From Tagaea sp. CACIAM 22H2 (GTDB lineage Bacteria; Pseudomonadota; Alphaproteobacteria; CACIAM-22H2): 64,000 nt of DNA. Shown one piece after another: positions 1-23,810 of the stretch. Location of the stretch: contig PVXE01000004.1 of the NCBI GenBank assembly GCA_014444615.1, positions 2,768 through 66,767 on the forward strand. The letters are read 5' to 3'. Below the pieces are notes generated by a model that had not been told where the DNA came from, searched no databases, and was given only the letters and a program-made list of their open reading frames with translations. The position numbers were made by a program, and so were the translations under genes. Numbering within the stretch: the first letter of the stretch is position 1; every line of letters starts with the position of its first letter.

Positions 1-2357
1 TCTGCGGCGGTATCTATGGCAAGACCAAGATCACCAAGCGCGGCAGTCCACTTATTCTGCCACTCCGCCAACGCGTTCGTCGCCGCCTCAAAGTTTCGCT
101 GTCGATGCGCAACGAGCTTGCCAGCTTCCACAATATCCTTTTCAAGCTGGGACTTCCTGTCGGCTTCGGCCTCATGAAGCCGCAGCTCTTCCGCCACTCG
201 CTCGACAACGATAGGCAGGCCGTCCAATTCCAGTGCACTCACATCGGCACCCAATGCAGCCAGCTCATTAATCAACTGCTGCCTTGCCAACTGCTCTTCA
301 CCACGAGCAGCCTCCAACACACTGTCGGCTTCATCCCGCGCTTCAATGGCCTCGAGCACCCCGTCGCGGCCTTCTAGCCATTCCAGCATTGTCTCAGGCG
401 CTTCCGGCTCAAACGGTGCCCCAGTCCATAGCGCAGTCCAATCGGCTTTCAGTTGCTTGCCTTCCTCCACCAGTCTCTTCTCGTTGTCCTGCACCTGACC
501 AAGAAGCGTTTCTCGCTCATCGACCTTTCGCTTGATCTCGGCGATGCGGCCGGCAGCTTCGGCATGGTCGAAGCGTCGGTCGGCCAGTTCGTCGGCCCTG
601 ACGACGGCAGGCTCGAAGGCACCTGCTAGATCCTCGATCTCGTGCTTGTACTGTACGGCTTGATCCGGCGGGATCGGCTGCCCCTTGATGTGCTTGAGCT
701 TTACCAGCTGCCACACAACGTCGCGGCGATCACGCGTGTCCTTCAGTTCTTCGGCGCTAACCACCAGCTCATCGCGCATCGCTCGCTCAAGGGCGGCAGC
801 GGCACCGTCCAGCTCCTGCTGAACGGAAGCAACCTGCTGCTGCGTTTCAGTCAGCCTCCGCCGCCAGTCATCCTGCCTTTCACGCTGCGCCTGCACCTTG
901 ACCCGCGCAGGTATATTCATGCCGGTCAGCGCCCCTTCATCGCCAACACTGGGTTCAAGTGAACTAAGCCGCCGGGCGACCCGGCTCCTCGCGCTCTTTA
1001 ACGCCTCTGCCGCAGCGCGCACCCGACCGGCGATGTCACCCTGTTCGCGCACACTCTTCAGTACGACGGTCATCCGTGACGCGTCACCCGGATCACCGGC
1101 CTTGGCAAGCTCATCCTTCAGTCCGGCGTGATCTTCCTTCGCTTCCTCCAATTGCCGTTCCTTGCCGGAAACATCGCCCTCCAACTCACCTTTCTGAATG
1201 AGCAGAGATCGCACGACACTAACCTTTGGCCGCGACGGAATGCGCCCGATTAGCGCGTTTGTGTCGCCATCCCGCCAGTCGAGTTCTGCGGCATCATCTT
1301 TCAACTTGCTTTGCGCAGCTTGAAGCTCAGCCTCACGTTTTGGCAGATCAGCCTTTTCAGCGCGAATCTCGATACGCCGTTCGCAGACTTGGCGAACATC
1401 CGCCGCGCGCTCGATAATCGTCGCGTCATAAGTCAGATTTTCCCGCACTTCTTCGGCGCGCCGAAGCTGTTCCCTCAATGTGCCGATACGCGTGGCCACC
1501 TCAGCATCCTTGCGCTCGGACTCGGCGACAAGCCCGGCCGCGTTCTCGGGCAGAGCGATCACGGCACCGAGCTCACCCAAAAGCATGTCTAGCTCTTGCT
1601 TTCGGCACACATCCCGAAACACCCGCCGAATCCGGCTCAGCCGGTTCCGATTAACTGTCGCTTCGCCGATAGCCTTGTCGATATTGCGATAGGCCTCTTC
1701 AGCATCTTCGTTCGTTTTCTTCAACTCGCTCCACTTTGCGGCGCTGAGCGTCTGCTCACGCAGTTCCCGCTGTGCGACCTCAAGCTTATCTTCGGCAACC
1801 GAGAACCTCCGGTGCTTCGCCCGCCGCCCCGGACTCCACAAGCCATCCGCCTCGGTGGACAGTTGGGTCAACCGCTCCCGCAACCCCCCGATACCGGCAC
1901 CCGCTGAGAACAGCACCTGGCCAACGTCGTCCTTGGCATCCAGGATTTCCCGGCCACCGGCCTCTAGGCGCGTATGGTCAAGGCTGAACATGCGCTCGAA
2001 GAACGCCCGGTCCGCGCCGGCAAGGTAGGGGCGAAGTATCGCCTCCCCTCCGGGAACCGACAAACCTTCCGGTCCCAGCAGCGTGTCCTTGTTACCTTTT
2101 CTCCGCAGCACCTCCAGCACATCGCCGTTGTTCTCCAGAACGGCGCCGATCCTCATGCTGCCGTAATCGTGCAAAAAGCCGTATGGCGTTTGCCCGTAGA
2201 TGCCAAACAAAAGATCCGCGATGGCTGACAGCGCCGTAGACTTACCGGCCTCATTCCGGCCGAAGATGATGTGGAAGTCCGACGTGTCGGCAGGCAACTC
2301 GAGCGCCCGCTCGGTGAAGTGGCCATAGCGCAGCAGATCGAGGCGTCGTATCCGCAT
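1..2357 (-). CDS. SbcC/YhaN-like P-loop ATPase (DNA-repair exonuclease ATPase subunit), 5-prime part only; gene runs off the left window edge
   Basis: Reverse-strand reading from ATG at 2357 stays open to position 1 (not in the ORF track because no in-window stop). N-terminus MRIRRLDLLRYGHFTERALELP...FHIIFGRNEAGKSTALSAIADLLFG carries a Walker A (GRNEAGKST) followed by a long coiled-coil-like, E/R/A/L-rich region typical of SbcC/Rad50/YhaN ATPases. Start overlaps the upstream nuclease stop by 4 bp (ATGA). Confidence 0.6.
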   Translation of the reverse strand, partial: MRIRRLDLLRYGHFTERALELPADTSDFHIIFGRNEAGKSTALSAIADLLFGIYGQTPYGFLHDYGSMRIGAVLENNGDVLEVLRRKGNKDTLLGPEGLSVPGGEAILRPYLAGADRAFFERMFSLDHTRLEAGGREILDAKDDVGQVLFSAGAGIGGLRERLTQLSTEADGLWSPGRRAKHRRFSVAEDKLEVAQRELREQTLSAAKWSELKKTNEDAEEAYRNIDKAIGEATVNRNRLSRIRRVFRDVCRKQELDMLLGELGAVIALPENAAGLVAESERKDAEVATRIGTLREQLRRAEEVRENLTYDATIIERAADVRQVCERRIEIRAEKADLPKREAELQAAQSKLKDDAAELDWRDGDTNALIGRIPSRPKVSVVRSLLIQKGELEGDVSGKERQLEEAKEDHAGLKDELAKAGDPGDASRMTVVLKSVREQGDIAGRVRAAAEALKSARSRVARRLSSLEPSVGDEGALTGMNIPARVKVQAQRERQDDWRRRLTETQQQVASVQQELDGAAAALERAMRDELVVSAEELKDTRDRRDVVWQLVKLKHIKGQPIPPDQAVQYKHEIEDLAGAFEPAVVRADELADRRFDHAEAAGRIAEIKRKVDERETLLGQVQDNEKRLVEEGKQLKADWTALWTGAPFEPEAPETMLEWLEGRDGVLEAIEARDEADSVLEAARGEEQLARQQLINELAALGADVSALELDGLPIVVERVAEELRLHEAEADRKSQLEKDIVEAGKLVAHRQRNFEAATNALAEWQNKWTAALGDLGLAIDTAA

Positions 2358-2359
2358 GC

Positions 2360-3631
2360 TCAATCCTCCTGTGCTGTAAGCCGTGCGGACAGATATGGCG
2401 AGACTTCACCGATCAGCGCGGCGTAATCGCCATCAACGGTAACCTTCAACACGCTATCGCCGATGTCGCCGCGAACCTCGTGGGGCAGCTGGCGCACGAG
2501 CTTGCCGATATCGTCCTTGATTCGCGCCAGTAGGTCTACGTCCCCCGTAGCATCCTGCAACAGGCGCTGTAGCTCACCGATCGCGTCTTCACGCTCGGCC
2601 AGCGTTTTTGCATCGACCTTAGGCTGGGTACGAGCGATCACCTTTTCCACCCATGCGACATCATCACCCAAGCGAAGGGCACCGGCACGGGCTTCGGCCA
2701 GCAGCCGGTCCTCGGAAGCAACAAGCTGACCATGAACAGCGGTCCGACCTTCCAAGACAATACGGCAGGCCAGAAGCCGCCCATCGGCTTCATCGGCAGC
2801 GACTTCCACGGCGGTGCGAATTCGATCGATCACCTCACCTAGGTTCTCGGCACTGTCCACTGGAACCGTCAGAACTGCCCACCGCACCACGTCACAGGGA
2901 ATCGTAGTCAGTTCGACGACGTCACGATTCTCGACGCTAACGAGGCATGCACCTTTGACACCGGTTTCGCGGGCATGGCGGCCCTGAAGATTGCCCGGAA
3001 AGACGACGTGGGGATCTTTGCGCAACACGCTCGCCTGATGGACGTGGCCCAAAGCCCAATAATCGTAGCCCTTGTTGATCAAGTCTTCGATGGCGCATGG
3101 AGCGTAGTTCTGGTGGCCCCCCATGCCGCCGAGACCCGTATGCAGCACACCGATGTTGAAGGCACCGGAAATGGGCGCTGGGTATTCGGGCACAAGATTG
3201 TCCGTAACGTCCCGCTGCCGGAAACTCTGCCCATGCAGCACGACCTGCAACTCGCGCAGTTCAAATGTCTGCGGCTTGCGTGTACCGAATACATGCACGT
3301 TATCGGGCAGTTCGAGCCGACGAGTTATCTGGCTTTCGGCATCATGGTTGCCGTGGAGTAGATAGACCGGGATACCCTCTTTGTTGAGTCGGCCCATCTG
3401 TGCAGCGAAGAACAACCCAGTCTTGTAGTCCCGCCAATCGCCGTCATATAGGTCCCCGGCGATAATGAGAAAATCGACCTTTTCCTCAATGGCCTGTCCG
3501 ACCAGCGTAACAAGCGCCTCGCGAGTCGCGGTCCGTACCCGCGCGGCAGCGTTACCTTCCTGGCTTGCAAGGCCCCGCAACGGGCTGTCGAGATGAATGT
3601 CGGCAGCATGGAGAAACCGAAAAGATGTCAT
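2360..3631 (-). CDS. SbcD/Mre11-family metallophosphoesterase nuclease (YhaO-like)
   Basis: 423-aa ORF with calcineurin-like phosphoesterase motifs in canonical order: FLHAADIHLD (motif I), IIAGDLYD (II), LLHGNHD (III), LGHVH (V). Paired with, and translationally coupled to, the downstream ATPase. Confidence 0.8.
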   Translation of the reverse strand: MTSFRFLHAADIHLDSPLRGLASQEGNAAARVRTATREALVTLVGQAIEEKVDFLIIAGDLYDGDWRDYKTGLFFAAQMGRLNKEGIPVYLLHGNHDAESQITRRLELPDNVHVFGTRKPQTFELRELQVVLHGQSFRQRDVTDNLVPEYPAPISGAFNIGVLHTGLGGMGGHQNYAPCAIEDLINKGYDYWALGHVHQASVLRKDPHVVFPGNLQGRHARETGVKGACLVSVENRDVVELTTIPCDVVRWAVLTVPVDSAENLGEVIDRIRTAVEVAADEADGRLLACRIVLEGRTAVHGQLVASEDRLLAEARAGALRLGDDVAWVEKVIARTQPKVDAKTLAEREDAIGELQRLLQDATGDVDLLARIKDDIGKLVRQLPHEVRGDIGDSVLKVTVDGDYAALIGEVSPYLSARLTAQED

Positions 3632-3639
3632 CGGGATAC

Positions 3640-4095
3640 ATCACCCTTTTGGCCGCTCATTGCCATCCCACAGACGATCCAATCTGCACGTTCAGGATCT
3701 AATTTCTTGGCCTATGAGATTCTGATTCTTGTATTTACAAAGCCATCCACGCGACAAAGCCTAAATCGATTGTCCGGCGAAAATTTTTTGAAATCAAGTT
3801 CTTGCTATCTTATACGACTCACTGTCCCGCCACTGACTTCCCAATTCGAGCATCTTCGCTGGTTTGGTAACTGGATCCCTCAAATAGCGTCCAACACCTG
3901 CATTACTGAGGCTGATGACCGTGGCGGTACAATCGACCAGCGGTTCTCGCTCACTTACATCAGCTGCAGCACGCCAAATTCCGTGTACTGATCGAGCGGG
4001 CTCGGTAGTTCTTAGTGGTATACACAAACACGACCAATAATAGTTAAGATCGCAAGGCTGTGAACTACGGCAGGGCGAGTTTCGTGATTTGAATC
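3640..4095. promoter_or_regulatory. AT-rich divergent intergenic/promoter region between the nuclease-ATPase operon and the Hhe-like gene
   Basis: About 450 bp visibly AT-rich compared with flanking coding DNA; no convincing ORF; lies between two divergently transcribed start codons (3631 minus, 4096 plus). Confidence 0.4.
3809..3827 (+). promoter_or_regulatory. T7-class (single-subunit RNAP) promoter-like motif, speculative
   Basis: cTTATACGACTCACTgtcc versus T7 consensus TAATACGACTCACTATAGGG: 13 of 14 contiguous identities in the recognition/specificity region but the +1 to +3 GGG is absent. About 270 bp upstream of the Hhe-like start, same strand. Confidence 0.15.
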
Positions 4096-7000
4096 TTGTC
4101 CAATTGCCTTGCCATTAACGATTCCCATAAACGCCTAGCGCAGTGCCCTCAAATGGATACGCCCCCATCTGCCACGCTCGATCGAATCCCCTCGTTGCTG
4201 GAGGAGGTTCGGCGGCGTCTTGTCGAGACCGGAACGCGAAACCGCCTCATTCATGTCAATCGCAAGGCCCTTAGGACCAATGCGTTAAACGTCGTGAATG
4301 AGCGATCAGATGACGTGTTTTCGATTCTACGAACCGAGGCACGCAGGATGCGATTCCGGGCTCTCGGCAAAGATCGGACGGAAGATGCGGATGGCCCGAT
4401 CCTAGCCGAGGAAACCGTCAACATCCAAATCGAAGCAAGACACCAGGACACGCTTCTCGATACACTTCTCGGTCCCGACGCCCTCCAGAAGCGCCTTCTC
4501 CGACTGGCAGACGAGGCGAAAGTCGCGGAGAATGAGCAAGGCGTAAATATCCTCTATCTCGCGCTCGGCTTCCTCACTTGGTACGAGGATGAGAAATCGA
4601 CGGTCGCGCGCGAAGCGCCGCTCATCCTCCTTCCGGTCGAGTTGGTGCGAAACGAGCGAGGATCAACGTTCGATATTCGCGCTCGCGACGACGATCTGTT
4701 CACGAACCTGCCACTGCAGGAACGACTAAAAGGCGATTTCGGGATACAGCTCCCGGAAATCGAAGAGAGCGACGCGTGGACGCCAGAAAGCTATTTCGAG
4801 CTTGTCGAGGATTGCATCGGCGAGAAGAAACGCTGGAAGATCGACCATGACGGAATCCAACTCGGATTCTTCTCGTTCGCCAAGTTGCTTATGCTCCGGG
4901 ATCTCGACCCCGCTAACTGGCCGGACGGCGCGCTGACCAAACTCGATATCGTCCGCCGGCTGTTGAAAGACGGCTTCGAGCAAGATGCGCCACTTTTCGG
5001 GCCGGAGGATCGGCTCGACGACAAGCTCGATCCCTGCGACATGCTACACGTCGTCGACGCCGACGCGTCGCAGACAAAAGTAATCGAAGAGGTGCGCAAA
5101 GGGCGCAATCTCGTCGTTCAAGGTCCGCCGGGAACGGGTAAGTCGCAGACCATCACGAACATCATCGCAGCTGCGGTCCACGATGGAAAATCGGTCCTGT
5201 TCATGGCCGAGAAAATGGCGGCGCTCGGGGTGGTCCACAACCGGCTCGTCAAGTCGGGGCTCCGGGACGTCTGCCTCGAGCTCCATTCGCGTAACGCCAA
5301 CAAGAAGCTCGTCCTGCAAGAACTGGCGCGAACGCTCAACGCGGCCGGATCGGTCGCTCAGTTGAACAACGATCCGACACAACTCCGCGAGCTCCGCGCC
5401 CAGCTCAACGAATGCGCCGAATTGCTCCATCGCGATGTGCCAGGTCGCGACTACACACCGTTCGAGGTGATTTCCCGGATTGTGAGCTTCATCGGAAAAG
5501 GCACAAGGCCGCCAACTCTGATACGCGAGGGGTTGGCGAGCCTGACGTCGGACGAAGTGGGGACTCTGGCAAAGACGATCCAAATTTACGTTGATCTGCT
5601 CGCCAAGTCCGGCCCTCGGCACGCACACCCGTTTGCCGGCGCGACCGCCGACGATATGCAGCCGACCGATCAACAGCGCCTCGCACTGGAACTGGATGCC
5701 GCCGCCGCCGCCTTCTCAAAATTCGACGCGACGCTCGCTCGGATCTTAGTGTCCGGTGGTTTGCCGCTGCCTTCGACCGTCGGCGACGCAGACCGTATTG
5801 CGGACCTTCTGGGGCGCCTCTCATCCTTGCCAGCGCGGCTAATGCCCTTGTGCGACGAACTCTTCGACAAGGCGGATGACAAACGCTTGCGCGAAGGGCT
5901 CGCCGCCGGTGCAGCTTGGCGTATGGCACGCGATGCAATCGAGAACATTTTCACCGATGCCGCTTGGACGCTTCCGGCGGCCGCGCTGCGGCCCTCGATC
6001 GCGAAAGGCACGTCCTCGTTCTTCGCTCGTGTGTTCGGCGGCTATCGCAGCGCGTGTGCCCAGCTAGCGAGCGTACTGCGGCAACCGCTTCCCAGGGCGT
6101 CGGGAGAGCGACTTCGACTTGTCGATCGCCTCCTCGAAGTCGAAAAACTGCGGACCGCACTGCGGGACGACGAAGACTATATTAAGACCTCGCTCGCCGA
6201 GCACTGGCGCGGCGAGCGCAGCGAATTCAGCGATCTCCACTTAGTCTTGAATTGGCTCACCGCGAACAAGAAAAGCGGTCTTGTGCTCACACGAGAGATG
6301 CTTACTGCGGTTCTGCGGCTTGCGACAGAATCGGCAAGCCATCGCGACGCGATCATGGCGGCCGCAAAGGACGTACGCGCCGCCGTCACAACGGTTCTCG
6401 ACCGTCTTGCCTTCGAACCGCCGATCGATGGCGATAGTTTCGACATTAAGCAAGTTGCCGCGCGTTTTACCTGCATGCGGCGCGAGCTCGCGCGCTATTC
6501 GGAGTGGACGGCCTTGCGCGGAGCGGTACGCCGCCTCGAACAATCCGAGCTTGGTACGCTCGTCGCGGCGATCGACGCGGGGAAGATCGCGCCTGACGAA
6601 GCCTCTGACGAGTTCCTCTATGCGACCGCTGAGGCGCGTTGGCGCGAAATCCGCAACACGATTCCGGCGTTGGCCGCTCTGCGAGAGACCGATCGCCACG
6701 GACTCGTCGCGCGCTTTCAGACTGCCGAACGCGATCGGATCGCCAGCGTCCAAAAGTTGATTCAGGCGAAGCATCTCGAGCAACTCCCGAGGGGTGCGGC
6801 GGGTGAGATGGCCGTCATCCGAGGCGAAATCGCTAAGAAGCGCTCGCATAAGCCAATCCGTAAGCTCTTCGAAGCGGCCGGTTCGATGGTTCGTCGCATC
6901 AAACCAGTCCTACTGATGAGCCCAATCTCGATTGCTCAATTCCTTCCGCCACAAAGGATCAATTTCGACCTACTCGTGATCGATGAGGCCAGTCAGGTCC

Positions 7001-8847
7001 GCCCAGAGGACGCGCTTGGTGCGGTCGCACGCGCCGCGCAGATCGTCGTCGTCGGCGACCAAAAGCAATTGCCGCCAACAAGCTTCTTTGACCGTCTCAC
7101 GGATGATGCGCCGGATGACGGATCAAGCGAGGAAGAAGAAAATGAGGCCCCCCAAGCGGCGAAAGCGACTGAGATGGAAAGCATCCTGACGCTCTGTGAA
7201 GCGCGGGGGCTCGGATCGCGAATGCTCGAGTGGCATTATCGATCGAGGGATCCTTCACTTATCAGCATCTCGAATGTCGAGTTCTACGAAAATCGTCTTG
7301 TCCTGCCACCCTCGCCGCTCCAGCTCGACAGAAACTATGGGCTTTCTTTCAGACGCGTTCCGGGCGCCTACAGCTCGAAGAGTCGCGGCGGTGGACGACC
7401 TGGGACCAATCGGATCGAAGCCGAGGAGATCACCAAGATGATCGCCGCGCATGCGCGGGACTGGCCAGAGCTTTCGCTTGGCGTTGTGGCTTTCTCGAAG
7501 GCGCAAAGCGACATGCTGAATGAGGCGATCGAAGTCGCGCGCCGCAAGGACGCCGTGCTGGACAGCTTCATTCGAGCGAGCACGGCTGAGGAATTCTTTG
7601 TCAAAAACATCGAAAACGTCCAGGGCGATGAGCGCGATGTGATCCTGATAAGCATCGGCTACGGACCCCACGAGCCCAACGGCCGCCTCGCCTCGATGCA
7701 TTTCGGACCGGTGAACGGCGAGGGTGGCGAGCGGCGACTGAATGTCCTATTCAGCAGGGCCCGTGTGCGGTGCATTGCAGTCGCATCGTTCGATCCGTCA
7801 GAAATTGACCCAAGTCGCGCGTCCCGCAACGGTCCGCGTGTACTCAAAAGGTTTCTCGACTTCGCCATCAGCGGGCACCTCGACGAGCGTATCGCAACGG
7901 GCGATGCTGCCGAAAGCCCATTCGAGGACGATGTTGCAGACGTAATCGTATCGCTCGGCTACTGCGCCGATGCTCAGGTTGGCAGCGCCGGCTTCAGGAT
8001 CGATATCGGCGCGCGCCATCCCGATCGGCCGGGGCAATACATCCTGGCCGTCGAATGCGACGGCGCGACATGGCACGGCGCGCTATGGGCGCGCGAACGC
8101 GATCGTCTACGTCAGGATGTTCTCGAGAATCTCGGGTGGCGCTTCCACCGCATCTGGAGCACCGATTGGTTCCATCGTCGCGATCAGGAAATTGCCCGAT
8201 TGCGCGCGGCGCTCGAATCCGCCAACGCCGAAGGCAAGAAGGGCACGTATGTCCGCGGCGCCAACGACCGGACGGATGTATCGATTGAGGATCAAGTTAC
8301 CGACGGCTCGAACGCATCAGAGGAATCTCCGGTGTCTGCTCTGCCACAGATCGAGGTTCCGGCTTATCGGCGCGCCGAAATCCCTGCACCCATCGGCGGT
8401 GAGCCACACGATGCGCCGATTGAAGTGCTAGCTGAGATGGCATTACGGATCATTGAGATAGAGGGGCCTATCCATACCGATGAGATTGCGCGGCGGGTGG
8501 CGGCTGGGTTTGGAAAGAGCAAGGCAGGAGGACGTATCCAGAAAGCCGCGACCGCGGCGCTCGACAAAGTAAGACGCAAGGGTGGAATCATCGCGTTTCA
8601 GGATTTTTGGATGACGCTATCCCAGCAAGCGTCACCGCCTGTGCGCAACCGTGCTGCCGAGTCCACGCCAACGACGAGAGCGATCCATATTTGTCCGCTG
8701 GAAATTCGCGCAGCTGCAGCCCTCATCTCAAGAGAGAGTGGGAATGTTCAAACGGACGAGATGATCCGATCAGTTGCACGTCTACTTGGATTTCAGCGAG
8801 TTGGCGCCGATCTCCAGGCCCAAATAAGTGACGCACTACAATCGTGA
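4096..8847 (+). CDS. Hhe-like defence protein: DUF4011 N-domain + Upf1/Dna2-like SF1 helicase (AAA_11/AAA_12) + Vsr/DUF559-like endonuclease + DUF3320 C-domain
   Basis: 1583 aa. Walker A VVQGPPGTGKSQT; motif II LLVIDEASQV; LEWHYRSRDPSLISISNVEFYENRL; NVQGDERDVILISIGYG; NVLFSRARVRCIAV (SF1 motifs in order, with the long insertion typical of AAA_11). Then GYCADAQVGSAGFRIDIGARHP...ILAVECDGATWHGALWARERDRLRQDVLENLGWRFHRIWSTDWF (DUF559/Vsr-fold endonuclease signature) and a C-terminal IRIIEIEGPIHTDEIARRV...IAFQDFWMT region resembling DUF3320. Alternative start at 4153 (MDTPPSATLDRIPSLLEEVRRRL). Confidence 0.8.
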   Translation: MSNCLAINDSHKRLAQCPQMDTPPSATLDRIPSLLEEVRRRLVETGTRNRLIHVNRKALRTNALNVVNERSDDVFSILRTEARRMRFRALGKDRTEDADGPILAEETVNIQIEARHQDTLLDTLLGPDALQKRLLRLADEAKVAENEQGVNILYLALGFLTWYEDEKSTVAREAPLILLPVELVRNERGSTFDIRARDDDLFTNLPLQERLKGDFGIQLPEIEESDAWTPESYFELVEDCIGEKKRWKIDHDGIQLGFFSFAKLLMLRDLDPANWPDGALTKLDIVRRLLKDGFEQDAPLFGPEDRLDDKLDPCDMLHVVDADASQTKVIEEVRKGRNLVVQGPPGTGKSQTITNIIAAAVHDGKSVLFMAEKMAALGVVHNRLVKSGLRDVCLELHSRNANKKLVLQELARTLNAAGSVAQLNNDPTQLRELRAQLNECAELLHRDVPGRDYTPFEVISRIVSFIGKGTRPPTLIREGLASLTSDEVGTLAKTIQIYVDLLAKSGPRHAHPFAGATADDMQPTDQQRLALELDAAAAAFSKFDATLARILVSGGLPLPSTVGDADRIADLLGRLSSLPARLMPLCDELFDKADDKRLREGLAAGAAWRMARDAIENIFTDAAWTLPAAALRPSIAKGTSSFFARVFGGYRSACAQLASVLRQPLPRASGERLRLVDRLLEVEKLRTALRDDEDYIKTSLAEHWRGERSEFSDLHLVLNWLTANKKSGLVLTREMLTAVLRLATESASHRDAIMAAAKDVRAAVTTVLDRLAFEPPIDGDSFDIKQVAARFTCMRRELARYSEWTALRGAVRRLEQSELGTLVAAIDAGKIAPDEASDEFLYATAEARWREIRNTIPALAALRETDRHGLVARFQTAERDRIASVQKLIQAKHLEQLPRGAAGEMAVIRGEIAKKRSHKPIRKLFEAAGSMVRRIKPVLLMSPISIAQFLPPQRINFDLLVIDEASQVRPEDALGAVARAAQIVVVGDQKQLPPTSFFDRLTDDAPDDGSSEEEENEAPQAAKATEMESILTLCEARGLGSRMLEWHYRSRDPSLISISNVEFYENRLVLPPSPLQLDRNYGLSFRRVPGAYSSKSRGGGRPGTNRIEAEEITKMIAAHARDWPELSLGVVAFSKAQSDMLNEAIEVARRKDAVLDSFIRASTAEEFFVKNIENVQGDERDVILISIGYGPHEPNGRLASMHFGPVNGEGGERRLNVLFSRARVRCIAVASFDPSEIDPSRASRNGPRVLKRFLDFAISGHLDERIATGDAAESPFEDDVADVIVSLGYCADAQVGSAGFRIDIGARHPDRPGQYILAVECDGATWHGALWARERDRLRQDVLENLGWRFHRIWSTDWFHRRDQEIARLRAALESANAEGKKGTYVRGANDRTDVSIEDQVTDGSNASEESPVSALPQIEVPAYRRAEIPAPIGGEPHDAPIEVLAEMALRIIEIEGPIHTDEIARRVAAGFGKSKAGGRIQKAATAALDKVRRKGGIIAFQDFWMTLSQQASPPVRNRAAESTPTTRAIHICPLEIRAAAALISRESGNVQTDEMIRSVARLLGFQRVGADLQAQISDALQS

Positions 8848-8850
8848 TGG

Positions 8851-9300
8851 CATGCTACGAGCTTTGTAGACACGCGGGTTAGCCAATCGCATCTTGGCCT
8901 CGAACACCATCGGGCTCACGTGGCCGATCGTCGAGTGGCGTCGTCACGGATTGTAGAAACGCTCGATTTAGTCGAACACGTCGTCCCTTGCGTCGTCGCG
9001 CGTCCGATAGTCCTTGCGCCCGATGCGTTCGGTCTTGCACGACGAGAAGAAGCTCTCCATCACCGCGTTATCCCAGACATTGCCCGTCCGGCTCATTGAA
9101 CAGACGATGCCCTGATCAGCGAGCAATCGCTGGAACGCTTCGCTGCCGTACTGGTTGCCGCGATTGGAGTGATTCAGCACCAACCTCAGGCGTCCTCGTC
9201 GTCATATCGCCGTCATCGGCGCGTCGATCAGCCGACCACCCGGCACGAGAACAGGCCGAGGACCACGGCCACGTGCCTCCCATCAGTCCCCATGGGACAG
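8851..9300 (-). pseudogene. IS3-family transposase (OrfB, DDE integrase core C-terminus) remnant, frameshifted
   Basis: Minus-strand ORF 8968-9183 reads LNHSNRGNQYGSEAFQRLLADQGIVCSMSRTGNVWDNAVMESFFSSCKTERIGRKDY.TRDDARDDVFD; other frames continue with YIERFYNP and RRHSTIGHVSPMVFEAKMRLANP, the canonical IS3 OrfB C-terminus broken by at least two frameshifts/stops. No intact OrfA/OrfB upstream. Left boundary approximate. Confidence 0.65.
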
Positions 9301-9692
9301 TTTACAAGCGTGCATTCGGCTCATCGTCACTGTGAAAGAGAAGAAGATCAAACTCATGAAACAGACCTCACTGAACGATTCGGCCTAAGAGAAGGTTGAG
9401 TTTGTCATCTCCGAGTTCTCGGTGCGATTCCTCGATCGTTGAGCGAGGCGCGCCTGAAGCGGATGAATTGGACAAATTTGTCCTGCTGCTTGTTGAGCCT
9501 AAGCGGTCGAGAAATAATCATTTTTATCAGATCATCGTCGCAGCACGACAAAAACGTCCAAATTCACTTTCTATTCTTTGGTGGTTTTCAGCCTCTAATT
9601 TCGTTTTTTATCTTTTGACCATGGAGTTTGCTCGATGTTTTCATGATTAGAGGCGCCTGCATTCCGGCGCATAATTTGAACGAGGTCCCAAA

Positions 9693-9932
9693 ATGGAATC
9701 CGATAAAGATAAATCTGAAAAGGTTCCTATCCAGATATGGGTGAAATCAGAAGACAAAGCCTATCTCATGTATTTGAAGCAGAAGCTCCGCTTTAAGCGG
9801 CTAGACGAGCTGTTTAATATCTTGCTTGATGATTTGTTTGAAAGCGAAGGCCTTGAAAGGATTTGTGGTACGAGCAAGGACGATTTGAAGAAACGAAAAG
9901 ATTTTGAATTGAATGTGAAAATAAAAGTTTGA
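9693..9932 (+). CDS. small hypothetical protein, possible ribbon-helix-helix (CopG/MobC-like) DNA-binding fold, in a strongly AT-rich patch
   Basis: 79-aa ORF with a GAGG about 6 nt upstream of the ATG. KVPIQIWVKSEDKAYLMYLKQKL..LDELFNILLDDLF fits a beta-strand then two helices (RHH-like). Codon usage/GC clearly foreign to the rest of the window. Weak call. Confidence 0.35.
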   Translation: MESDKDKSEKVPIQIWVKSEDKAYLMYLKQKLRFKRLDELFNILLDDLFESEGLERICGTSKDDLKKRKDFELNVKIKV

Positions 9933-10364
9933 ATGACTGCCCATAGCCTAATCTTGAGAGTTTTTTGGTTTTTATTTTCCAACCTAATTCTGAATAATTT
10001 TCATTGGCGCGTCGCACACTTGTCGAGATTGCTGGCTAATTGACTGATCGGTAGATTGATTGCGGTGGTCAATCCCGTTTTAGCGACAGTAAGTCGTCGG
10101 CGATAAGCGCATCGATACTGCTGTCCATCGCTATTGCGTTTCTTACTCCAGTCCTTCAGCGATGCCGAACTTGGGTTTGGTATTTGCCATTGTCGCGCAC
10201 GCATCCTCCCACCGGGAAAGCTGGCACCCATCTCGACTTCGCGATTCCATCGTGCATGGCGACGCTAAAGATCCTGCGTCGTACCTCTCGATGCCACAGC
10301 GCATGCTCGCGGATTCGCCAGAAGGCACGATCGCTCTCTTTGCCGGCGCTTCTTCGGCCGCTCT

Positions 10365-10808
10365 TCACGCCATCATAGAAGATGTAGCGGCTTCGATCTC
10401 TCGTACGAGTTCCGGGCGCTTGTCGAGCAAAGCCAGCAGGAGCGCCGCCGAATGGCGCTGGCGGAAATTGGTGTGGTCGAGCGCGTCGAAGCCGCCGGGC
10501 GTGCCCATGATCAACGCGCTCAGGCCGCGAAACGTGAGCGTCTCGTATCGCGCGGCCCGGAGCTTCTTCACGATCCGCCGCGCCGCACGCCGGAGGGCGC
10601 GGGCGTCAGCCGCTTTCATCTCCGCGAGCGCCCGGTCGGCGGCCGCGCCATCTTCGCGCCACATCAGCCCGTCATCGGCGCCTTCGGGAAACCAACCCTT
10701 CACCCTCGCGGTACGCGTCATCCCACCGTAAACGACGGTTATGTCGCGCTCGGCCCGGCGCAGCTTGACACCGGTTACCGGATGAACACGCGTGTGCGGT
10801 GTCCGCAT
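10365..10808 (-). CDS. MqsA-family antitoxin-like HTH protein (degenerate N-terminal zinc-ribbon-like domain + C-terminal XRE HTH)
   Basis: Trimmed from ORF 10365-10871 to internal MRTPHTRV start. C-terminus ...HTNFRQRHSAALLLALLDKRPELVREIE parallels E. coli MqsA ...GNAQPHPSTIKLLRVLDKHPELLNEIR. N-terminal region parallels the MqsA zinc-ribbon region but lacks the Cys ligands. No MqsR-like toxin ORF adjacent. Confidence 0.5.
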   Translation of the reverse strand: MRTPHTRVHPVTGVKLRRAERDITVVYGGMTRTARVKGWFPEGADDGLMWREDGAAADRALAEMKAADARALRRAARRIVKKLRAARYETLTFRGLSALIMGTPGGFDALDHTNFRQRHSAALLLALLDKRPELVREIEAATSSMMA

Positions 10809-10821
10809 TGCGACGCGCCTC

Positions 10822-11148
10822 TCACGCCGCTGTACGCGGTGCGGCGGCAATTCGCGAGAGATCCTTGGCAATGCGCCGCTTGGCGCGCCAAAGGTCGTGG
10901 GTTCCCTGCATGCGTAGAAACATCTCGGCCGAACCGCCGGCGACGGCGCTGAAGCGCAGCGCCATTTCCGGCGAGACCGCCCCCGCGCACGACAAGACGC
11001 GATGCAACGTCTGGCGCCTGACGCCCATCCGAGCCGCCGCGTCGGCCGTCGAGAGCTTCAAATGCTCGTGGACGATTTCATTTATCAACTCGCCTGGATG
11101 CGTCGGTTCGCGGGCGATCTCGCGGGTTTGGAATTTTGTCATCAGCAT
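10822..11148 (-). CDS. HigA-family antitoxin-like XRE-type HTH protein
   Basis: Trimmed to MLMTKF start (ORF track start at 11265 is probably an over-extension). THPGELINEIVHEHLKLSTADAAARMGVRRQTLHRVLSCAGAVSPEMALRFSAVAGGSAEMFLRMQGTHDLW matches the HigA/VapI consensus (xHPGEIL...LGxSxxxLAxxLGVxRxxxxxxxxGKRxITxxxALRLxxxFGxSxEFWLNLQxxYDL). No HigB/RelE-like ORF upstream on the minus strand (checked all frames for about 300 bp). Confidence 0.65.
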   Translation of the reverse strand: MLMTKFQTREIAREPTHPGELINEIVHEHLKLSTADAAARMGVRRQTLHRVLSCAGAVSPEMALRFSAVAGGSAEMFLRMQGTHDLWRAKRRIAKDLSRIAAAPRTAA

Positions 11149-11733
11149 AGCCTCGGCCTCAAGATTACTAGAAGCAGGATTGTGAAACGAGTCCGACACT
11201 GCGGACGGCGGGGCTCGCGCCCGCACCGGTTCTACGACGCCAATATGCATAGGCGCACTTAACATCCCGCGTCGCGGGCCGTCGAAACCCCGGTATCAGC
11301 CCCCTGCGCGGGCGTGTCGAACGGATGCGCGCGGACGCGGACGGGGTCGTCGCACCGGTAAGCCTGGCCGGCACGAAGACCCGGCACGCTCTTCCCGCTG
11401 ACGCCGGACAGGCGAAGCAGCGAAGGGCGAAACCGCACCCCGCACCGGTGCGGGAGATTTCCCAAAAGCCACCCAGCGAACCCCCTTGAGACCCAGCGGG
11501 ACCGTTGGGCGGGTGCCGCGCACCCGCACGCCATTTCCGAAAAAAAACGAGGCGGCGGCGGTTCGGGTCGGGTGGGGAAAAGGGGCGGAAGACCCGAACG
11601 GCGTCGACACGCGATTTTAAGTGCCGAGAGGTTAGCCTCCCGGGTGTTGGGTTCGGGAAACCCGTTCAGGGCGCAATAACGCATCCTGCACTTTTTTGGG
11701 GTGCACGATGCTTGCGAAAGGTCGATTTCGGCG

Positions 11734-12105
11734 ATGGCCAAACATGACCACGAACCCGACTGGGAGGAACTGAAACAGGGCTGGCTTGAGGAGGGTAACC
11801 ACGACGAATTGGGCCTGACCGGATCCGGACGCGGCGCGCGCCAATCCCCGTTCTATTTGCGTCTGTCGGTGCGTCCGGCCCGGCAGCTTGGCCAACTCGC
11901 CGACAAGCGGCCAGAGCCGCTGGACGCACCTGAGGTTCGAGTCGCCTTCTGCGCCCGACTTCCAGCCGAGACGGCGGTGGCGCAGCCGCGCCCGGCGCGC
12001 GAGTTGCGGTCTGTAGGTGCTGTAGGTGCGCGTGCGTGCATTCAATCGGCTTGCGGCCGCAGCATCTTCAGGTTCACCGGTAGCGCTGGGGCTGGCGAGG
12101 CATAA
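11734..12105 (+). CDS. hypothetical protein (123 aa), very uncertain
   Basis: Internal start MAKHDHEPDWEELKQGWLEEGNHDELGLTGSG...; no recognisable motif; high-GC region where spurious ORFs are common. Contains the tandem ctgtaggtg x2. Confidence 0.2.
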   Translation: MAKHDHEPDWEELKQGWLEEGNHDELGLTGSGRGARQSPFYLRLSVRPARQLGQLADKRPEPLDAPEVRVAFCARLPAETAVAQPRPARELRSVGAVGARACIQSACGRSIFRFTGSAGAGEA

Positions 12106-12192
12106 GGCCAGGGCGCTCGCCCGGGAAGGCGCGGAAGCGGTGCCCGATCGCCATCGCCTGGAATAGCCCTGGCGCGCGGCTGGGATGGCTAG

Positions 12193-12450
12193 GTGACGAT
12201 CCCAGCCCCGCAGGCGCGAAGGCGCAACGACGGCGTCGACGAGGCGGTCTGGATCGAACTCTCGGCCCGGCGGCGAATGGCCGAGTGCGCCGAGCTCGCG
12301 CGCATCTGGACGTCCGGTGCGCGCCCGGAAGCCGCGCTGTCGGTCGAGATCGGCGTGGCCGTCGGCATGGTCGCCGCCGCGCTCGACGCGCATGCCGAAA
12401 CTGCCGGAGCTCGGGTGCGGCGGGCCGCGAAAAGCCGCGAACGCGACTGA
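12193..12450 (+). CDS. hypothetical small protein (85 aa), very uncertain
   Basis: ORF MTIPAPQARRRNDGVDEAVWIELSARRRMAECAELARIW...; ends 12 bp before the direct-repeat array; no motif recognised. Confidence 0.15.
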   Translation: MTIPAPQARRRNDGVDEAVWIELSARRRMAECAELARIWTSGARPEAALSVEIGVAVGMVAAALDAHAETAGARVRRAAKSRERD

Positions 12451-12470
12451 TGCGGTAAGAAAGAGGGTTT

Positions 12471-12545
12471 GTCACCGATGTGAATCGGGTTGTCACCTTT
12501 GAATTCGCACGCAAATTCGATAGCGCGTGATTCGCGTTGTCACAG
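12471..12545. repeat. direct repeat copy A (75 bp) with three TTGTCAC motifs
   Basis: gtcaccgatgtgaatcgggttgtcacctttgaattcgcacgcaaattcgatagcgcgtgattcgcgttgtcacag; about 93 percent identical to copy B 152 bp downstream; followed 22 bp later by an inverted GTGACAAA. Confidence 0.8.
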
Positions 12546-12622
12546 GCTGGCGCCGGGTCGACCGCCGGCTGTGACAAATGCGAGGAAAGCCGCGCTTTTC
12601 GCACGCCCGAATTTCGGGTTCT

Positions 12623-12697
12623 GTCACCGATGTGAATCGGGTTGTCGTCATTGAATTCGCACGCAAATTCGATAGCGCATGAATCGCGTTGTCACAG
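12623..12697. repeat. direct repeat copy B (75 bp)
   Basis: gtcaccgatgtgaatcgggttgtcgtcattgaattcgcacgcaaattcgatagcgcatgaatcgcgttgtcacag; followed 22 bp later by GTGACAAA (12721-12728), as for copy A (12571-12578). Confidence 0.8.
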
Positions 12698-13029
12698 TGC
12701 GTTTTGATCGGGTCGCGCGGGTGACAAAGCGCGTATTTCGCGACCTCGGCGGTTTGAGCGGTGCCGGGCTCTTCTATTTTGTTAGTTTGGCGGGCTTGCC
12801 GGGCGATTTTTCGTAGTTCGCCCACATCTCAACCCGCTCGACAGTCATGAACCCAAGCTGAGACTGTGCGGTGGCGTTTTCGACATTCTGGCAATAAGCA
12901 TCACCGATGCGCCGTCCAAATTTTCGTAGTTTCATGTTTTCATAGTTTTTTCCGCCACCTGATCAGTGGTCTCGTGCACTCGACCTTGTTGTGAAGGTGC
13001 CCAAATCGCTGAACTAAAACACATTTAAA

Positions 13030-13057
13030 AGTGAAATTCCTAAAACCAGGAATTTCA
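13030..13057. promoter_or_regulatory. perfect 11-bp inverted repeat (candidate operator or recombinase/RDF binding site) in AT-rich leader upstream of the recombinase gene
   Basis: GTGAAATTCCT aaaacc AGGAATTTCAC; sits in a visibly AT-rich stretch (about 12840-13320) about 265 bp upstream of the recombinase ATG. Confidence 0.45.
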
Positions 13058-13320
13058 CGCGCAGCACGGCGATTTTAAGTCCCTCGGCTGCATGATTAAT
13101 CCATGACTAAGCGTGGAAACGAACTGCTGACTTCGCATCCTGTGGCGCTGCCGCAGGCCGAAGTTGCGGCGCGAGTCCGAAAAACCAGCAAAGATACCGC
13201 CGATCGGATCAATCCTATTGCCCAGAATCGGAAGGCCCGTCTTACCTTACACTCGTCTAATGCTCCCTCGGCTTTTGCGGCTGTGATTTTGGGCGAATTT
13301 CTGCTGAAGCGAATAAAGAG

Positions 13321-14838
13321 ATGATTAAGGCAGTCCTTTACATTCGATCTTCGAAAGATCGCGCGGATGCATCGCCTGCCGCACAGCGACGCGCTTTGCA
13401 GGAGCTTGCTCGACAGCGTCATTTCGCGATTGTTGGAGAATTTGTTGATACGGTCGTCTCCGGAAAGGATGACGACCGACCTGGCTTTCAATCTCTTCTT
13501 CGAGCGATGCGCTCCAAGGATCGAGGTTGGACCCATATTCTTGCTGTAGACACCGCGCGCATCGCTCGCCGCCGGTCGATTGCAATCATTTTTGAAGAAC
13601 AGGAGTGCAAGCGTCAGGGCGTGAGCGTCGTGTACAAGTCGTTGCCTGAAGCGGATCCCGCGATGGAGATGCTTTTAAAAAGCATCTTGCAGGCGATGGA
13701 CGAATGGCATTCGCTGACGTCCAGGGCGAAAGGCGTCGCCGGAATGGCCGAAAATGTTCGCCAAGGTTGGCGGGCGGGCGGCAGAGCGCCGAAAGGCTAC
13801 GTGCTAAAATATGTCAGCACTGGCGCCGTTCGAGATGGCGAACAAGTCATGAAGTCGGTCTTAACACCCGCCGACGATGCGCCTGCCGTCAGTCAATTCT
13901 TGAAGCACAGGTCGAGAGGCATCCGCCGCGGGCGAGCCCTTGCGCTCGCTGGATTGTCTTGGCCACCAACCACAGCAATCGAGGTTGAGCGCAACGCTCA
14001 ACTTTATGCTGGCCACACGACCTGGAATCGTACGGAAGAGCGTTTGAAGGACGGTTACGCAGGCGGCCGTAAATGGCGGCCAGAAGAAGAGTGGGTGACT
14101 AATCGGAACACTCACCCCGCACTAATTACCGATGCTGAAGCACGAGCTATCCTCGATGGATTGAACGCGCGACGCCGCAGCGGAGGCTACCCCGCCCGCC
14201 AGATCTATCTTTTCGGCGGCATGATGACTGCCCCATCGGGGGCGAGATGGTCCGGAGATAGTGGGTACTATCGGCTCGGAAAAACGTCCCGCATCTCCGC
14301 CAAAGCAGTGGAGCAAGCCGTAATGGGGCGGGTGATCGAAGACTTCAAATCCGAACGCATGGTTGATGCGATCATCAATTCGATCCGCCAGGCTTCCGTT
14401 ACCATCGATGTCGGGCAAGACACGTCGAAGATCGAGCGCAAACGTGTCGAGACAGATCGAAAGATCGCGCGACTTACCGAACTCGTCTCAGAGACGCGAA
14501 CACCTGCCCCTTTGCTTCGCCAAATTGAGACTTTGGAAGCCGAACGCGAAGTGATCCTATCGCAGATCGCGCAAGCGAAAGCCCCTAAGGGGCCATCGCT
14601 GGACCTGTCGCATCTCAGACCCAGCGATATTCGAGCAATGCTCGACGATCTTGCGACAGAGCTGACGACATCGACAGCGCCCGAAATGCGCGATCTCGTT
14701 CAGCAGGTGATTGAGAAAGTGGAGTTATGCGCCGAAAGCTTCGAGGCGACGATCCACTATCGACCGCTTCCACTCCCAGGCGAAAGCGGGGTACGGCTGG
14801 CGTCCCCACGGGGATTCGAACCCCGGTCTGCACCGTGA
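13321..14838 (+). CDS. large serine recombinase (resolvase/invertase N-domain + recombinase domain + C-terminal coiled coil)
   Basis: 505 aa; N-terminus MIKAVLYIRSSKD (catalytic Ser in Y-x-R-S-S context), ILAVDTARIARR (resolvase D-R-x-x-R motif); long C-terminal recombinase/coiled-coil region (IERKRVETDRKIARLTELVSETR..LLRQIETLEAERE). Last 41 nt overlap the tRNA-Glu gene on the opposite strand. Confidence 0.8.
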   Translation: MIKAVLYIRSSKDRADASPAAQRRALQELARQRHFAIVGEFVDTVVSGKDDDRPGFQSLLRAMRSKDRGWTHILAVDTARIARRRSIAIIFEEQECKRQGVSVVYKSLPEADPAMEMLLKSILQAMDEWHSLTSRAKGVAGMAENVRQGWRAGGRAPKGYVLKYVSTGAVRDGEQVMKSVLTPADDAPAVSQFLKHRSRGIRRGRALALAGLSWPPTTAIEVERNAQLYAGHTTWNRTEERLKDGYAGGRKWRPEEEWVTNRNTHPALITDAEARAILDGLNARRRSGGYPARQIYLFGGMMTAPSGARWSGDSGYYRLGKTSRISAKAVEQAVMGRVIEDFKSERMVDAIINSIRQASVTIDVGQDTSKIERKRVETDRKIARLTELVSETRTPAPLLRQIETLEAEREVILSQIAQAKAPKGPSLDLSHLRPSDIRAMLDDLATELTTSTAPEMRDLVQQVIEKVELCAESFEATIHYRPLPLPGESGVRLASPRGFEPRSAP

Positions 14839-14873
14839 GAGGGTGCCGTCCTGGGCCTCTAGACGATGGGGAC
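14798..14873 (-). tRNA. tRNA-Glu (anticodon CUC)
   Basis: Reverse complement GTCCCCATCGTCTAGAGGCCCAGGACGGCACCCTCTCACGGTGCAGACCGGGGTTCGAATCCCCGTGGGGACGCCA: 7-bp acceptor stem pairs perfectly, GTCTAGAGGCCCAGGAC D-arm as in bacterial tRNA-Glu, anticodon stem GCACC/GGTGC with loop CTCTCAC (anticodon CTC), T-arm CGGGG-TTCGAAT-CCCCG, encoded CCA. Confidence 0.85.
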
Positions 14874-14950
14874 AGGCCTTCGGAAGGGCTGAGCATGTAG
14901 CCCATCGGCGGGCGGGACGCAAGCCGCCGCCGGACCCCGCGATTTGCCCT

Positions 14951-15982
14951 TTAAATCGCGGCTTTGGCGGTGGCGATCAGGCGTTCGGCGTCGGCTTCCC
15001 GGCTGTTCCACGACGCGACGAGGCGCAAACGCCGCGTGCCCGGCCCGAACCAGCGATAGACGGCGAAGCCTGCTTGCTCGATCGCGGCGATGGCCGCCTC
15101 GGGCAGATCGACGAAAACCTCGTTGGCTTGCACCGGATGGGCGAGCTTCGCGCCCGGCAAGGCGGCGAGCCCGCTCGCGAGCTTCGCCGCGACCGCGTTC
15201 GACTGGCGCGCAAGGTCAAGCCACAAGCCGCCGTCGAGATAGCCCGCCATCTGTGCGGCGAGATAGCGGTGCTTGGAAAACAAATGCCCCGCGCGCTTGC
15301 GCCGGAAGGCGAGCGTGGCCGCCAGCGCGTCGTCGAACACGACGATCGCTTCGACCGCGAGGCAGCCGTTCTTCGTGCCGCCGAAGGACAGGATATCGAC
15401 GCCGGCTTTCCACGTCGCCTCGGCCGGCGTGCAATTGCTCGCGACCAGCGCGTTGGCGAAGCGCGCGCCGTCGAGATGGACCTTCAGCCCGTGCTTGCGC
15501 GCGATGGCCGACAAGGCCGCGATTTCGGCCGGCGAATAGATCGTGCCCGCCTCGGTCGCGTTGGTCAGCGACAAGGCGGCGGGCTGCACATGATGCACCC
15601 CCCCCGCCCCGGCCGCGTTCAACGCCGCGTCGAGATCGGCGGGTGCCAACTTGCCGTGTTCGCCGTCGAGCCCGACAAGCTTGGCGCCGCCCGTGTAGAA
15701 TTCCGGCGCGCCGCATTCGTCTTCCTCGATATGCGCCGCCGCGTGGCAATAGATCGAGCCCCACACCGGCGTCATCGCGGCAAGCGACAACGCGTTGGCC
15801 GCCGTGCCGGTGGATACGAGGAACACTTTCGCGGGCCGCTCGAAGATCGCGGCGATTTTCGCTTCCACGTCGCGCGACAGCGCATCGTTGCCGTAGGGCA
15901 TCGAGGGTGCCGCATTGGCGGCTTCCAGTGCCGCCATCACCTGCGGATGGACGGGGGCGGTGTTGTCGGAGGCGAAGTTCAT
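14951..15982 (-). CDS. ltaE: low-specificity L-threonine aldolase
   Basis: Trimmed from 698-aa track ORF to MNFASDNTAPVHPQVMAALEAANA... (343 aa); PLP-aldolase signature (FASDN N-terminus, KHGLKVHLDGARFANA, SFGGTKNG with the PLP lysine). Confidence 0.8.
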   Translation of the reverse strand: MNFASDNTAPVHPQVMAALEAANAAPSMPYGNDALSRDVEAKIAAIFERPAKVFLVSTGTAANALSLAAMTPVWGSIYCHAAAHIEEDECGAPEFYTGGAKLVGLDGEHGKLAPADLDAALNAAGAGGVHHVQPAALSLTNATEAGTIYSPAEIAALSAIARKHGLKVHLDGARFANALVASNCTPAEATWKAGVDILSFGGTKNGCLAVEAIVVFDDALAATLAFRRKRAGHLFSKHRYLAAQMAGYLDGGLWLDLARQSNAVAAKLASGLAALPGAKLAHPVQANEVFVDLPEAAIAAIEQAGFAVYRWFGPGTRRLRLVASWNSREADAERLIATAKAAI

Positions 15983-17260: not shown

Positions 17261-17305
17261 CGCGGCGCGGGGCGCTCGACCCCGCGCTTCAGGAGCACAG
17301 CCCAC

Positions 17306-18489: not shown

Positions 18490-18524
18490 GATCTTTCTCC
18501 CTGCCCCCTAATATAGGGTCGGGG

Positions 18525-20467: not shown

Positions 20468-20530
20468 GGCGGAAAACGACTATAGCCGCTTTTGCGATTT
20501 CGCCGCCAAAACTGCTAACCTGTCGCCAAG

Positions 20531-21766: not shown

Positions 21767-21773
21767 GAACCGG

Positions 21774-23204: not shown

Positions 23205-23214
23205 GCGCTGCGCC

Positions 23215-23703: not shown

Positions 23704-23810
23704 TTAAACATATCCTTGGAATAATTCCGATTACCCCAAGCATATAAGGAGTCGAGCCCGGCGCGCCAAGGCGATCGGGGTAGCGCCGCTATGCGCGATC
23801 AGCATAGGCG

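Follow-up and report, generated by a model that had tools for sequence, protein, structure and literature searches.

Which family does the long helicase-nuclease gene near the left end of the Tagaea DNA studied here belong to, and what is its likely role? The DNA is a stretch of 64,000 nucleotides from Tagaea sp. CACIAM 22H2 (contig PVXE01000004.1, positions 2,768 to 66,767 of the forward strand), called the window below. The gene is contained in the open reading frame (ORF) that extends from 4096 to 8847 on the plus strand. An earlier note had described its product as a fusion of DUF4011, a superfamily 1 (SF1) helicase, a Vsr/DUF559 nuclease and DUF3320, and had equated it with the anti-phage protein Hhe. 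Its reading of the gene as a defence candidate is judged reasonable, given mobile, defence-adjacent relatives and the island context; the equation with Hhe did not hold. By profile comparison the gene is a member of the PDC-S37 family, an already catalogued candidate family from which nothing tested sets it apart. It probably encodes a stand-alone, single-polypeptide ATP-dependent helicase-nuclease of that family, carried as anti-phage or anti-invader cargo of a genomic island. Confidence in the details of trigger and substrate is much lower.

The family assignment was made with profile models. Residues are numbered from the ATG at 4153, and all Pfam matches cited for the window protein exceed their gathering thresholds. 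The best-scoring PADLOC family was PDC-S37 (model PDLC05009; 1738.7 bits), with residues 11-1563 of the protein aligned to positions 5-1531 of the 1550 in the model, a full-length match to a defence candidate. The runner-up was Hhe (PDLC02194), at 651 bits and over residues 820-1348 only. No cutoff is given for the PADLOC models; the NCBIfam models for Hhe and ProA are equivalog models. Against the ProA model (NF058533) the protein scored 1283.7 bits, under the cutoff of 1500, in a single stretch that joins residues 11-1549 to model positions 355-1903. Against the NCBIfam Hhe model (NF042953) it scored 930.2 bits, under the cutoff of 2000, and the best stretch joins residues 778-1363 to positions 1114-1689 of 1797. 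The IGHMBP2-family model TIGR00376 gave 72.8 bits. E-values of 0 were obtained against PDC-S37, ProA and more than 6500 homologues, and the family comprises more than 6,500 matches among 8,000 candidates scored.

A genuine Hhe from Klebsiella (WP_021314612.1, 1911 aa) was used as positive control. This protein is PGAP-annotated, is encoded on an IncFIB plasmid beside type I restriction and DUF262 genes, and scored 2735 bits on the NCBIfam Hhe model and 4299 bits on the PADLOC Hhe model over residues 1-1911. BLASTP aligned the window protein to it with 40% identity in RecA2 and the nuclease and 35% in DUF4011 and RecA1, and placed the ECDG of the window protein (E1301) on the ECDG of Hhe; no alignment was returned for the central insert or the C-terminal tail. 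Both are single-gene products that combine DUF4011, a Upf1-like SF1 motor with a large insertion and an MTES_1575 nuclease, and by analogy the window protein probably works in the same general way. The Klebsiella protein differs in carrying a weak DUF559 match and in having no Pfam match to DUF3320, which the window protein does contain. The strict assignment to Hhe was therefore rejected: the NCBIfam score lies under the cutoff, the similarity is confined to the cores, and the genuine protein has no DUF3320 match. For this last reason the DUF4011-SF1-Vsr-DUF3320 order, which the earlier note took for the architecture of Hhe, is not that of Hhe and belongs to the branch that holds PDC-S37 and ProA.

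ProA has the DUF4011-SF1-MTES_1575-DUF3320 order of the window protein and is collinear with it over model positions 355-1903; positions 1-354 of the model have no counterpart, as the alignment opens at residue 11. A Ralstonia megaplasmid protein (1881 aa, DUF3320 present) scored 1521.7 bits on ProA, just over the cutoff, and 1800 bits on PDC-S37. It is 37-38% identical to the window protein, collinear from the N- to the C-terminus, and has an identical Pfam set. Five other members of the subfamily of about 1,560 residues scored 1291-1345 bits on ProA, all under the cutoff of 1500, and a Paraburkholderia plasmid protein scored 1796 bits on PDC-S37. These scores and alignments indicate a DUF4011/SF1/MTES_1575 superfamily in which Hhe is one branch and a DUF3320-bearing branch corresponds to PDC-S37 and includes ProA; the window protein falls in the subfamily of about 1,560 residues within the latter. 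Hhe is not a suitable name for the family, because it forms a branch of its own and scores under the curated cutoffs of Hhe and ProA alike. Like the window gene, PDC-S37 is a single gene, with a full-length collinear profile match and no conserved partner. The claim that the gene represents an already described system type stands insofar as the family is catalogued in PADLOC, and was overstated for this subfamily, PDC-S37 being a candidate only. Longer variants of the same subfamily (P0013, P0027 and P0056; about 1840 aa) carry extra sequence. Some ProA-side relatives of about 2040 aa (P0163-P0243) carry AlbA_2 (PF04326), which is missing from the window protein.

Pfam confirmed the predicted order of parts, namely DUF4011, a split Upf1-like SF1 helicase (AAA_11/AAA_12), an MTES_1575 nuclease of the Vsr family and DUF3320. 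The gene and its parts are as follows.

3632..4152, no strand: divergent intergenic region of 521 bp, upstream of the helicase-nuclease
4153..8847, plus strand: helicase-nuclease coding sequence, 1564 aa plus stop (maximal ORF from TTG 4096)
4216..4728, plus strand: DUF4011, N-terminal alpha/beta domain, residues 22-192 (127 bits)
5122..5145, plus strand: Walker A motif GPPGTGKS of helicase lobe RecA1, residues 324-331
5248..6927, plus strand: predicted helical insertion of about 560 residues (366-925) that splits RecA1
6982..7077, plus strand: Walker B motif DEASQ (residues 944-948) and motif III GDQKQLPP (968-975), from Pfam and motif search
7210..7788, plus strand: RecA2 lobe, AAA_12, residues 1020-1212 (43 bits), with YRSR, QGDERDVILIS and FSRAR
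7921..8214, plus strand: MTES_1575 (PF18741), predicted Vsr-family PD-(D/E)xK nuclease, residues 1257-1354 (117 bits against a gathering threshold of 38.2)
8404..8844, plus strand: DUF3320 (residues 1418-1464, 61 bits) and C-terminal tail

The AAA_11/AAA_30 match is divided into two pieces, at about 304-361 with Walker A and at 936-977 with Walker B (AAA_11, 61 bits). The complete Upf1/Dna2-type SF1 motif set of the earlier note was found again, every quoted motif being present in the translation and invariant among homologues: in addition to Walker A and DEASQ, these are YRSR at 1029-1032, FY at 1044-1045, QGDERDVILIS at 1157-1167 and FSRAR at 1200-1204. An acidic linker follows motif III ahead of RecA2. 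The Vsr-fold nuclease and the DUF3320-like tail were likewise recovered, so that the helicase-plus-nuclease architecture stands. Only the DUF559 label fails, as PF04480 has no match to the protein at E<=0.01 and the nuclease matches MTES_1575 instead. The nuclease signature consists of ILAVECDGATWHG at 1297-1309 and LENLGWRFHRIWSTDWF at 1324-1340, and D1284 (in FRIDIG), E1301 and D1303 (in ECDG) are invariant among homologues. MTES_1575 has been defined as a Vsr-family restriction-endonuclease fold, and DUF3320 has been described as overlapping winged-helix domains (PMC3710099). DUF4011 contains an invariant motif, EQGxNxLYLAxGFLxW, at 4534-4581, and this domain is a candidate sensor or DNA-engaging module. 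The insert at about 366-925 is predicted to be entirely alpha-helical (predicted local distance difference test score, pLDDT, 85), and its structural matches are generic helical bundles only.

Conservation is distributed unevenly along the protein. Across 14 homologues at about 53-61% overall identity, the mean identity is 74-87% in the ATPase lobes (74% in RecA2) and 80% in the nuclease, against 59% in the N-terminal region, 48% in the DUF3320 tail and 41% in the helical insert, which varies more than any other large domain. Walker A, Walker B, motifs III-VI and the D...ExD of the nuclease are invariant across 17-50 homologues. Judged by these alignments, the enzymatic parts are conserved and the accessory parts variable.

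The gene is intact and under purifying selection. The ORF at exactly 4096..8847, with its translation of 1583 aa counted from TTG, was reproduced by the ORF listing of the window, and ATG 4153, giving 1564 aa, is more likely to be the true start than TTG 4096. The choice follows from GenBank MBC8790518.1, annotated as a 'DUF3320 domain-containing protein' of the Tagaea sp. CACIAM 22H2 metagenome-assembled genome (MAG), which has exactly the sequence of the product from ATG 4153, and from the three nearest homologues (98%, 81% and 76% protein identity), each of which has exactly 1564 codons and is free of indels relative to the window gene. Against these three the dN/dS of the window gene is 0.13, 0.13 and 0.12, respectively. 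The promoter of the gene presumably lies within 3632..4152. A promoter and terminator consensus scan of 3500-9400 gave nothing exceeding shuffled expectation, and it found no sigma-70-like site on the plus strand upstream of the gene in 3632..4152.

An insertion sequence (IS) of the IS3 family left a pseudogene that starts 3 nt beyond the stop codon of the gene, and compared with a close relative the downstream side is rearranged. A gene stranded by this insertion as an inactive relic would fit such a layout. That is extremely improbable, since the 1564-codon ORF is uninterrupted and keeps every invariant catalytic residue, the dN/dS against the 98%-identical copy is 0.13, and the upstream layout is identical to that of the relative. 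The pseudogene reading was rejected on the strength of the intact ORF and the dN/dS value.

A PDB sequence search returned IGHMBP2 and Upf1 as best matches and RecA as a further one, all confined to the Walker A/RecA1 region; no relative has a solved structure. With Upf1 and IGHMBP2/SMUBP-2 (SF1B) the window protein has only the motor core in common: its RecA1 is split by the 560-residue insert, and DUF4011, a nuclease and winged-helix domains are attached to the motor. The MTES_1575-type giant conflict proteins share with it an SF1 helicase, an MTES_1575 nuclease and a C-terminal DUF3320/winged helix-turn-helix (wHTH) module (PMC3710099). They are built as HEPN-transglutaminase-SF1-Vsr REase-wHTH (Anantharaman et al. 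2013), whereas Pfam detected no HEPN or transglutaminase domain in the window protein. CnuH of CoCoNuT type III-B likewise has a UPF1-like helicase with a helical insertion and a directly fused Vsr-like PD-(D/E)xK nuclease (PMC11090510). It has no wHTH, which the window protein has, and the window gene in turn lacks McrB/McrC (CnuB/CnuC) partners and SmpB-like or cold-shock domains.

These likenesses bear on the nature of the substrate. Targeting of RNA or RNA-DNA hybrids, as proposed for the UPF1-like CnuH (PMC11090510), would agree with the Upf1/IGHMBP2-like core that gave the best PDB matches, with the helical insertion in the ATPase, and with the existence of one CoCoNuT type fused to a Vsr-like nuclease. 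It is nevertheless very unlikely here, as the Vsr/MTES_1575 fold is that of a DNase, the winged-helix type described for DUF3320 typically binds DNA, and the McrBC, HEPN and cold-shock partners are all missing from the locus.

The setting of the gene was compared with that of its homologues in 81 loci: ORFs were called in flanks reaching at most 10 kb, and the neighbouring genes were clustered. No conserved neighbour was found, no neighbour family occurring in more than 7 of the 81 loci. The recurrent neighbours were a tyrosine integrase (7 loci), HsdR (5), HsdM (4) and AddAB-like pairs (4-5). The homologues at 81% and 76% identity have wholly different neighbours, one lying beside a WYL regulator and the other beside a MoxR/DUF2201 pair. 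The gene is therefore a stand-alone, single gene without an obligatory partner, as the earlier note had held. Its settings are mobile and rich in defence genes. At least about 14 of the 127 genes within two positions of a homologue (37 loci) match PADLOC models at E<=1e-15, a count that has no matched background set. Among them are MADS mad2/mad3, type I methyltransferase and specificity subunits, Dsr1, a DRT reverse transcriptase, a type II methyltransferase and a type IV restriction enzyme. In a Rhizobium MAG (L038, 2655-14918) a 12.2-kb island ends with the homologue as its last gene. Two full-length tRNA-Ser(CGA) genes of identical sequence flank this island (a 135-nt repeat, 99% identical), and a tyrosine-integrase-like gene lies beside the first copy.

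The family was found in Alpha-, Beta- and Gammaproteobacteria, Binatia and others, with at least 574 confirmed loci among 185,579 species-representative genomes. By tblastn, 542 plasmid records carry superfamily matches, of which 91 span 80% of the query or more; Hhe and more distant relatives make up the majority. Among the matches listed, a single one (52% identity) belongs to the same family. It lies on a conjugative plasmid of Paraburkholderia, where the homologue adjoins genes for a DUF4297 protein and a HerA-like DUF87 protein as well as an IS5 element. Only 5 weak or partial matches were found in 50,697 phage records, and the gene is not typically phage-borne. The family thus groups with mobile relatives beside defence genes rather than with housekeeping helicases.

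Several other loci have a tmRNA or tRNA gene no more than about 300 bp away from the homologue (L053 9606-9957, L045 14784-14874 and L065 14935-15011). The differing identities of the tRNAs at such loci suggest independent integrations.

Within the window the other features of relevance are the following.

1..3631, minus strand: operon divergent from the helicase-nuclease, with an SbcD/Mre11-like metallophosphoesterase (2360-3631) and an AAA_27 SMC-like ATPase (1-2357)
8850..9190, minus strand: IS3-family transposase (rve) pseudogene fragment with two in-frame stops
10365..10871, minus strand: MqsA-like ORF, a weak match under curated cutoffs, overlapping the HigA ORF and downstream of it
10822..11265, minus strand: HigA-family antitoxin with helix-turn-helix (HTH), 79.4 bits against an NCBIfam cutoff of 47.7
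13321..14838, plus strand: large serine recombinase, at the island edge
14798..14873, minus strand: tRNA-Glu(CTC), the probable integration site

The AAA_27 ATPase runs off the edge of the window; in L001, a 620-kb metagenomic contig with the 98%-identical copy, its full length is 1183 aa. PADLOC recognises neither gene of the pair, and the ATPase has no NCBIfam match. By tblastn the pair accompanies the helicase-nuclease only in L001 and L002, which are near-identical copies, and in 0 of 80 other loci. A three-gene system with this pair as a general partnership was discarded for that reason, and the SbcCD-like pair is not counted as part of the system.

The immediate neighbourhood of this pair could point to DNA repair. 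A housekeeping or accessory repair and recombination helicase-nuclease, acting in the manner of Dna2 or AddAB on broken or stalled host DNA ends, maybe together with the SbcCD-like pair, would account for the divergent operon and its retention in the 98%-identical relative, for the AddAB-like genes near 4-5 other loci and for the strong purifying selection; a large DUF4011 gene is, moreover, a core, non-variable gene in P. aeruginosa (PMC10250203). Such a role is quite unlikely for the window gene. None of the 80 more distant loci has the pair, even homologues with 76-81% identity lie in unrelated surroundings, and homologues are carried on conjugative plasmids and in tRNA-bounded islands. The nearest named relatives are anti-phage proteins, and the taxonomic distribution is patchy in view of the number of confirmed loci among species representatives.

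The earlier note had placed the gene in an island with an IS remnant, antitoxin-like regulators and a recombinase. The IS remnant and the recombinase were found as described; among the regulators, HigA exceeds its cutoff and the MqsA-like ORF does not. The GC content is 0.53-0.60 over most of 2-14 kb and 0.64-0.69 beyond. The last 41 nt of the serine recombinase ORF overlap the 3' part of tRNA-Glu(CTC) on the opposite strand, and this overlap marks the integration junction of the island. An Rfam scan of 1-16000 found the tRNA alone. From the low GC content, the HigA gene, the IS3 remnant and the recombinase at tRNA-Glu it follows that an island integrated at tRNA-Glu has its right-hand part in the left 15 kb or so of the window and its left end beyond the window. 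L001 shares positions 1-8847 of the window at 97.5% nucleotide identity, and the similarity stops exactly at the stop codon of the helicase-nuclease (8847/8848), so that the upstream side alone is in common. The end of similarity at the stop codon, with the IS3 pseudogene 3 nt further on, indicates that an IS-mediated rearrangement replaced the downstream cargo.

Downstream of its copy, L001 carries different cargo at 14879-24695, with an HTH regulator and a NERD protein, an SNase-domain protein, UmuD/UmuC-like genes and a 1119-aa M78 peptidase-UvrD-PDDEXK_1 fusion. This cargo may comprise further genes of the defence or SOS type. In the window island no obvious HigB toxin ORF lies beside the HigA antitoxin, and a 79-aa ORF at 9693-9932, within the markedly AT-rich 9350-10050, has no Pfam or NCBIfam match. 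Two 81-nt direct repeats (12465-12545 and 12617-12697; 91% identical, 152 nt apart), each with GTTGTCAC/GTGACAA-type motifs, are found between the HigA region and the recombinase, where the DNA seems to be non-coding; from their sequence they could be binding sites or iterons.

Carriage as island or plasmid cargo beside a recombinase, an IS remnant and a HigA antitoxin, together with the few weak matches in phage records, is also what would be seen if the gene were a weapon of the mobile element itself, excluding rival plasmids or islands or stabilising the island rather than acting against phages. This is considered unlikely: phage plaque assays were the test by which the nearest validated relatives were scored. 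The sequence nowhere separates an anti-plasmid from an anti-phage role, and the two readings overlap.

How the protein would act can be outlined for the preferred reading, a stand-alone defence helicase-nuclease. The Upf1-like SF1B motor would load on and translocate along nucleic acid, and all ATPase and helicase motifs are intact in the sequence, including the arginines of motifs V and VI. The C-terminal Vsr-family PD-(D/E)xK domain, with its predicted acidic triad D1284/E1301/D1303 intact, would cut nucleic acid. DUF4011, the 560-residue helical insert and the winged-helix tail may gate or target this activity by controlling loading or release from autoinhibition. The sequence of events would then be loading on invader DNA, 5'-3' translocation with ATP and cutting by the C-terminal domain. 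We infer the defence role, the 5'-3' direction of movement, the choice of DNA as substrate and the nature of the trigger.

The Hhe system was reportedly first described by Gao et al. 2020. The gene hhe protects E. coli against lambda, T3, T7 and PhiV-1, and its activity is lost in the nuclease mutant E1731A (10.1101/2022.06.16.496414). Several class II DNA-metabolism genes of T7 are candidate triggers of Hhe (10.1101/2024.10.10.617714), which suggests that Hhe responds to an activity and not to one protein. By analogy, the cue for the window protein may be replication or recombination intermediates or other activities produced by the invader. The searchable full-text literature yielded no mechanism for Hhe and no paper that describes ProA or mentions PDC-S37.

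Several points weigh against a defence role. The protein lies under the curated equivalog cutoffs of both validated relatives, Hhe and ProA. The literature search found no experiment on any member of the subfamily of about 1,560 residues, and PDC-S37 is a candidate family only. The candidate sensor domains gave no informative structural match, which makes the proposed trigger a guess. The core status of the P. aeruginosa gene means that not every member of the superfamily need defend, and the SbcCD-like pair is the immediate neighbour of the window gene. The count of defence genes near homologues has no matched control set. Proximity to tRNA genes was dropped as a general signature: 16 of 52 loci have a tRNA gene at a distance of 10 kb or less and one more has a tmRNA, which was judged not clearly over background.

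A further possibility is that the DUF3320-bearing subfamily of about 1,560 residues is a functionally distinct single-gene immune sensor and more than another Hhe, in which the fast-evolving insert and the tail set a different trigger or target, or else that the gene in this lineage forms a composite module with the divergent SbcD-like/AAA_27 pair. That pair is co-inherited in the only close relative. Taken together, this possibility is regarded as doubtful.

The main value of the finding is accurate bookkeeping. Public records label members of this family only as 'DUF3320 domain-containing protein', and a fitting label is PDC-S37-family, Hhe/ProA-related, rather than Hhe. The gene also helps to mark the approximately 15 kb at the left end of the window as a tRNA-Glu-associated mobile island. 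Should a member of the subfamily be shown to defend its host, a widespread alphaproteobacterial gene would gain a function, and the next question would be which cue the variable insert and the winged-helix tail detect.

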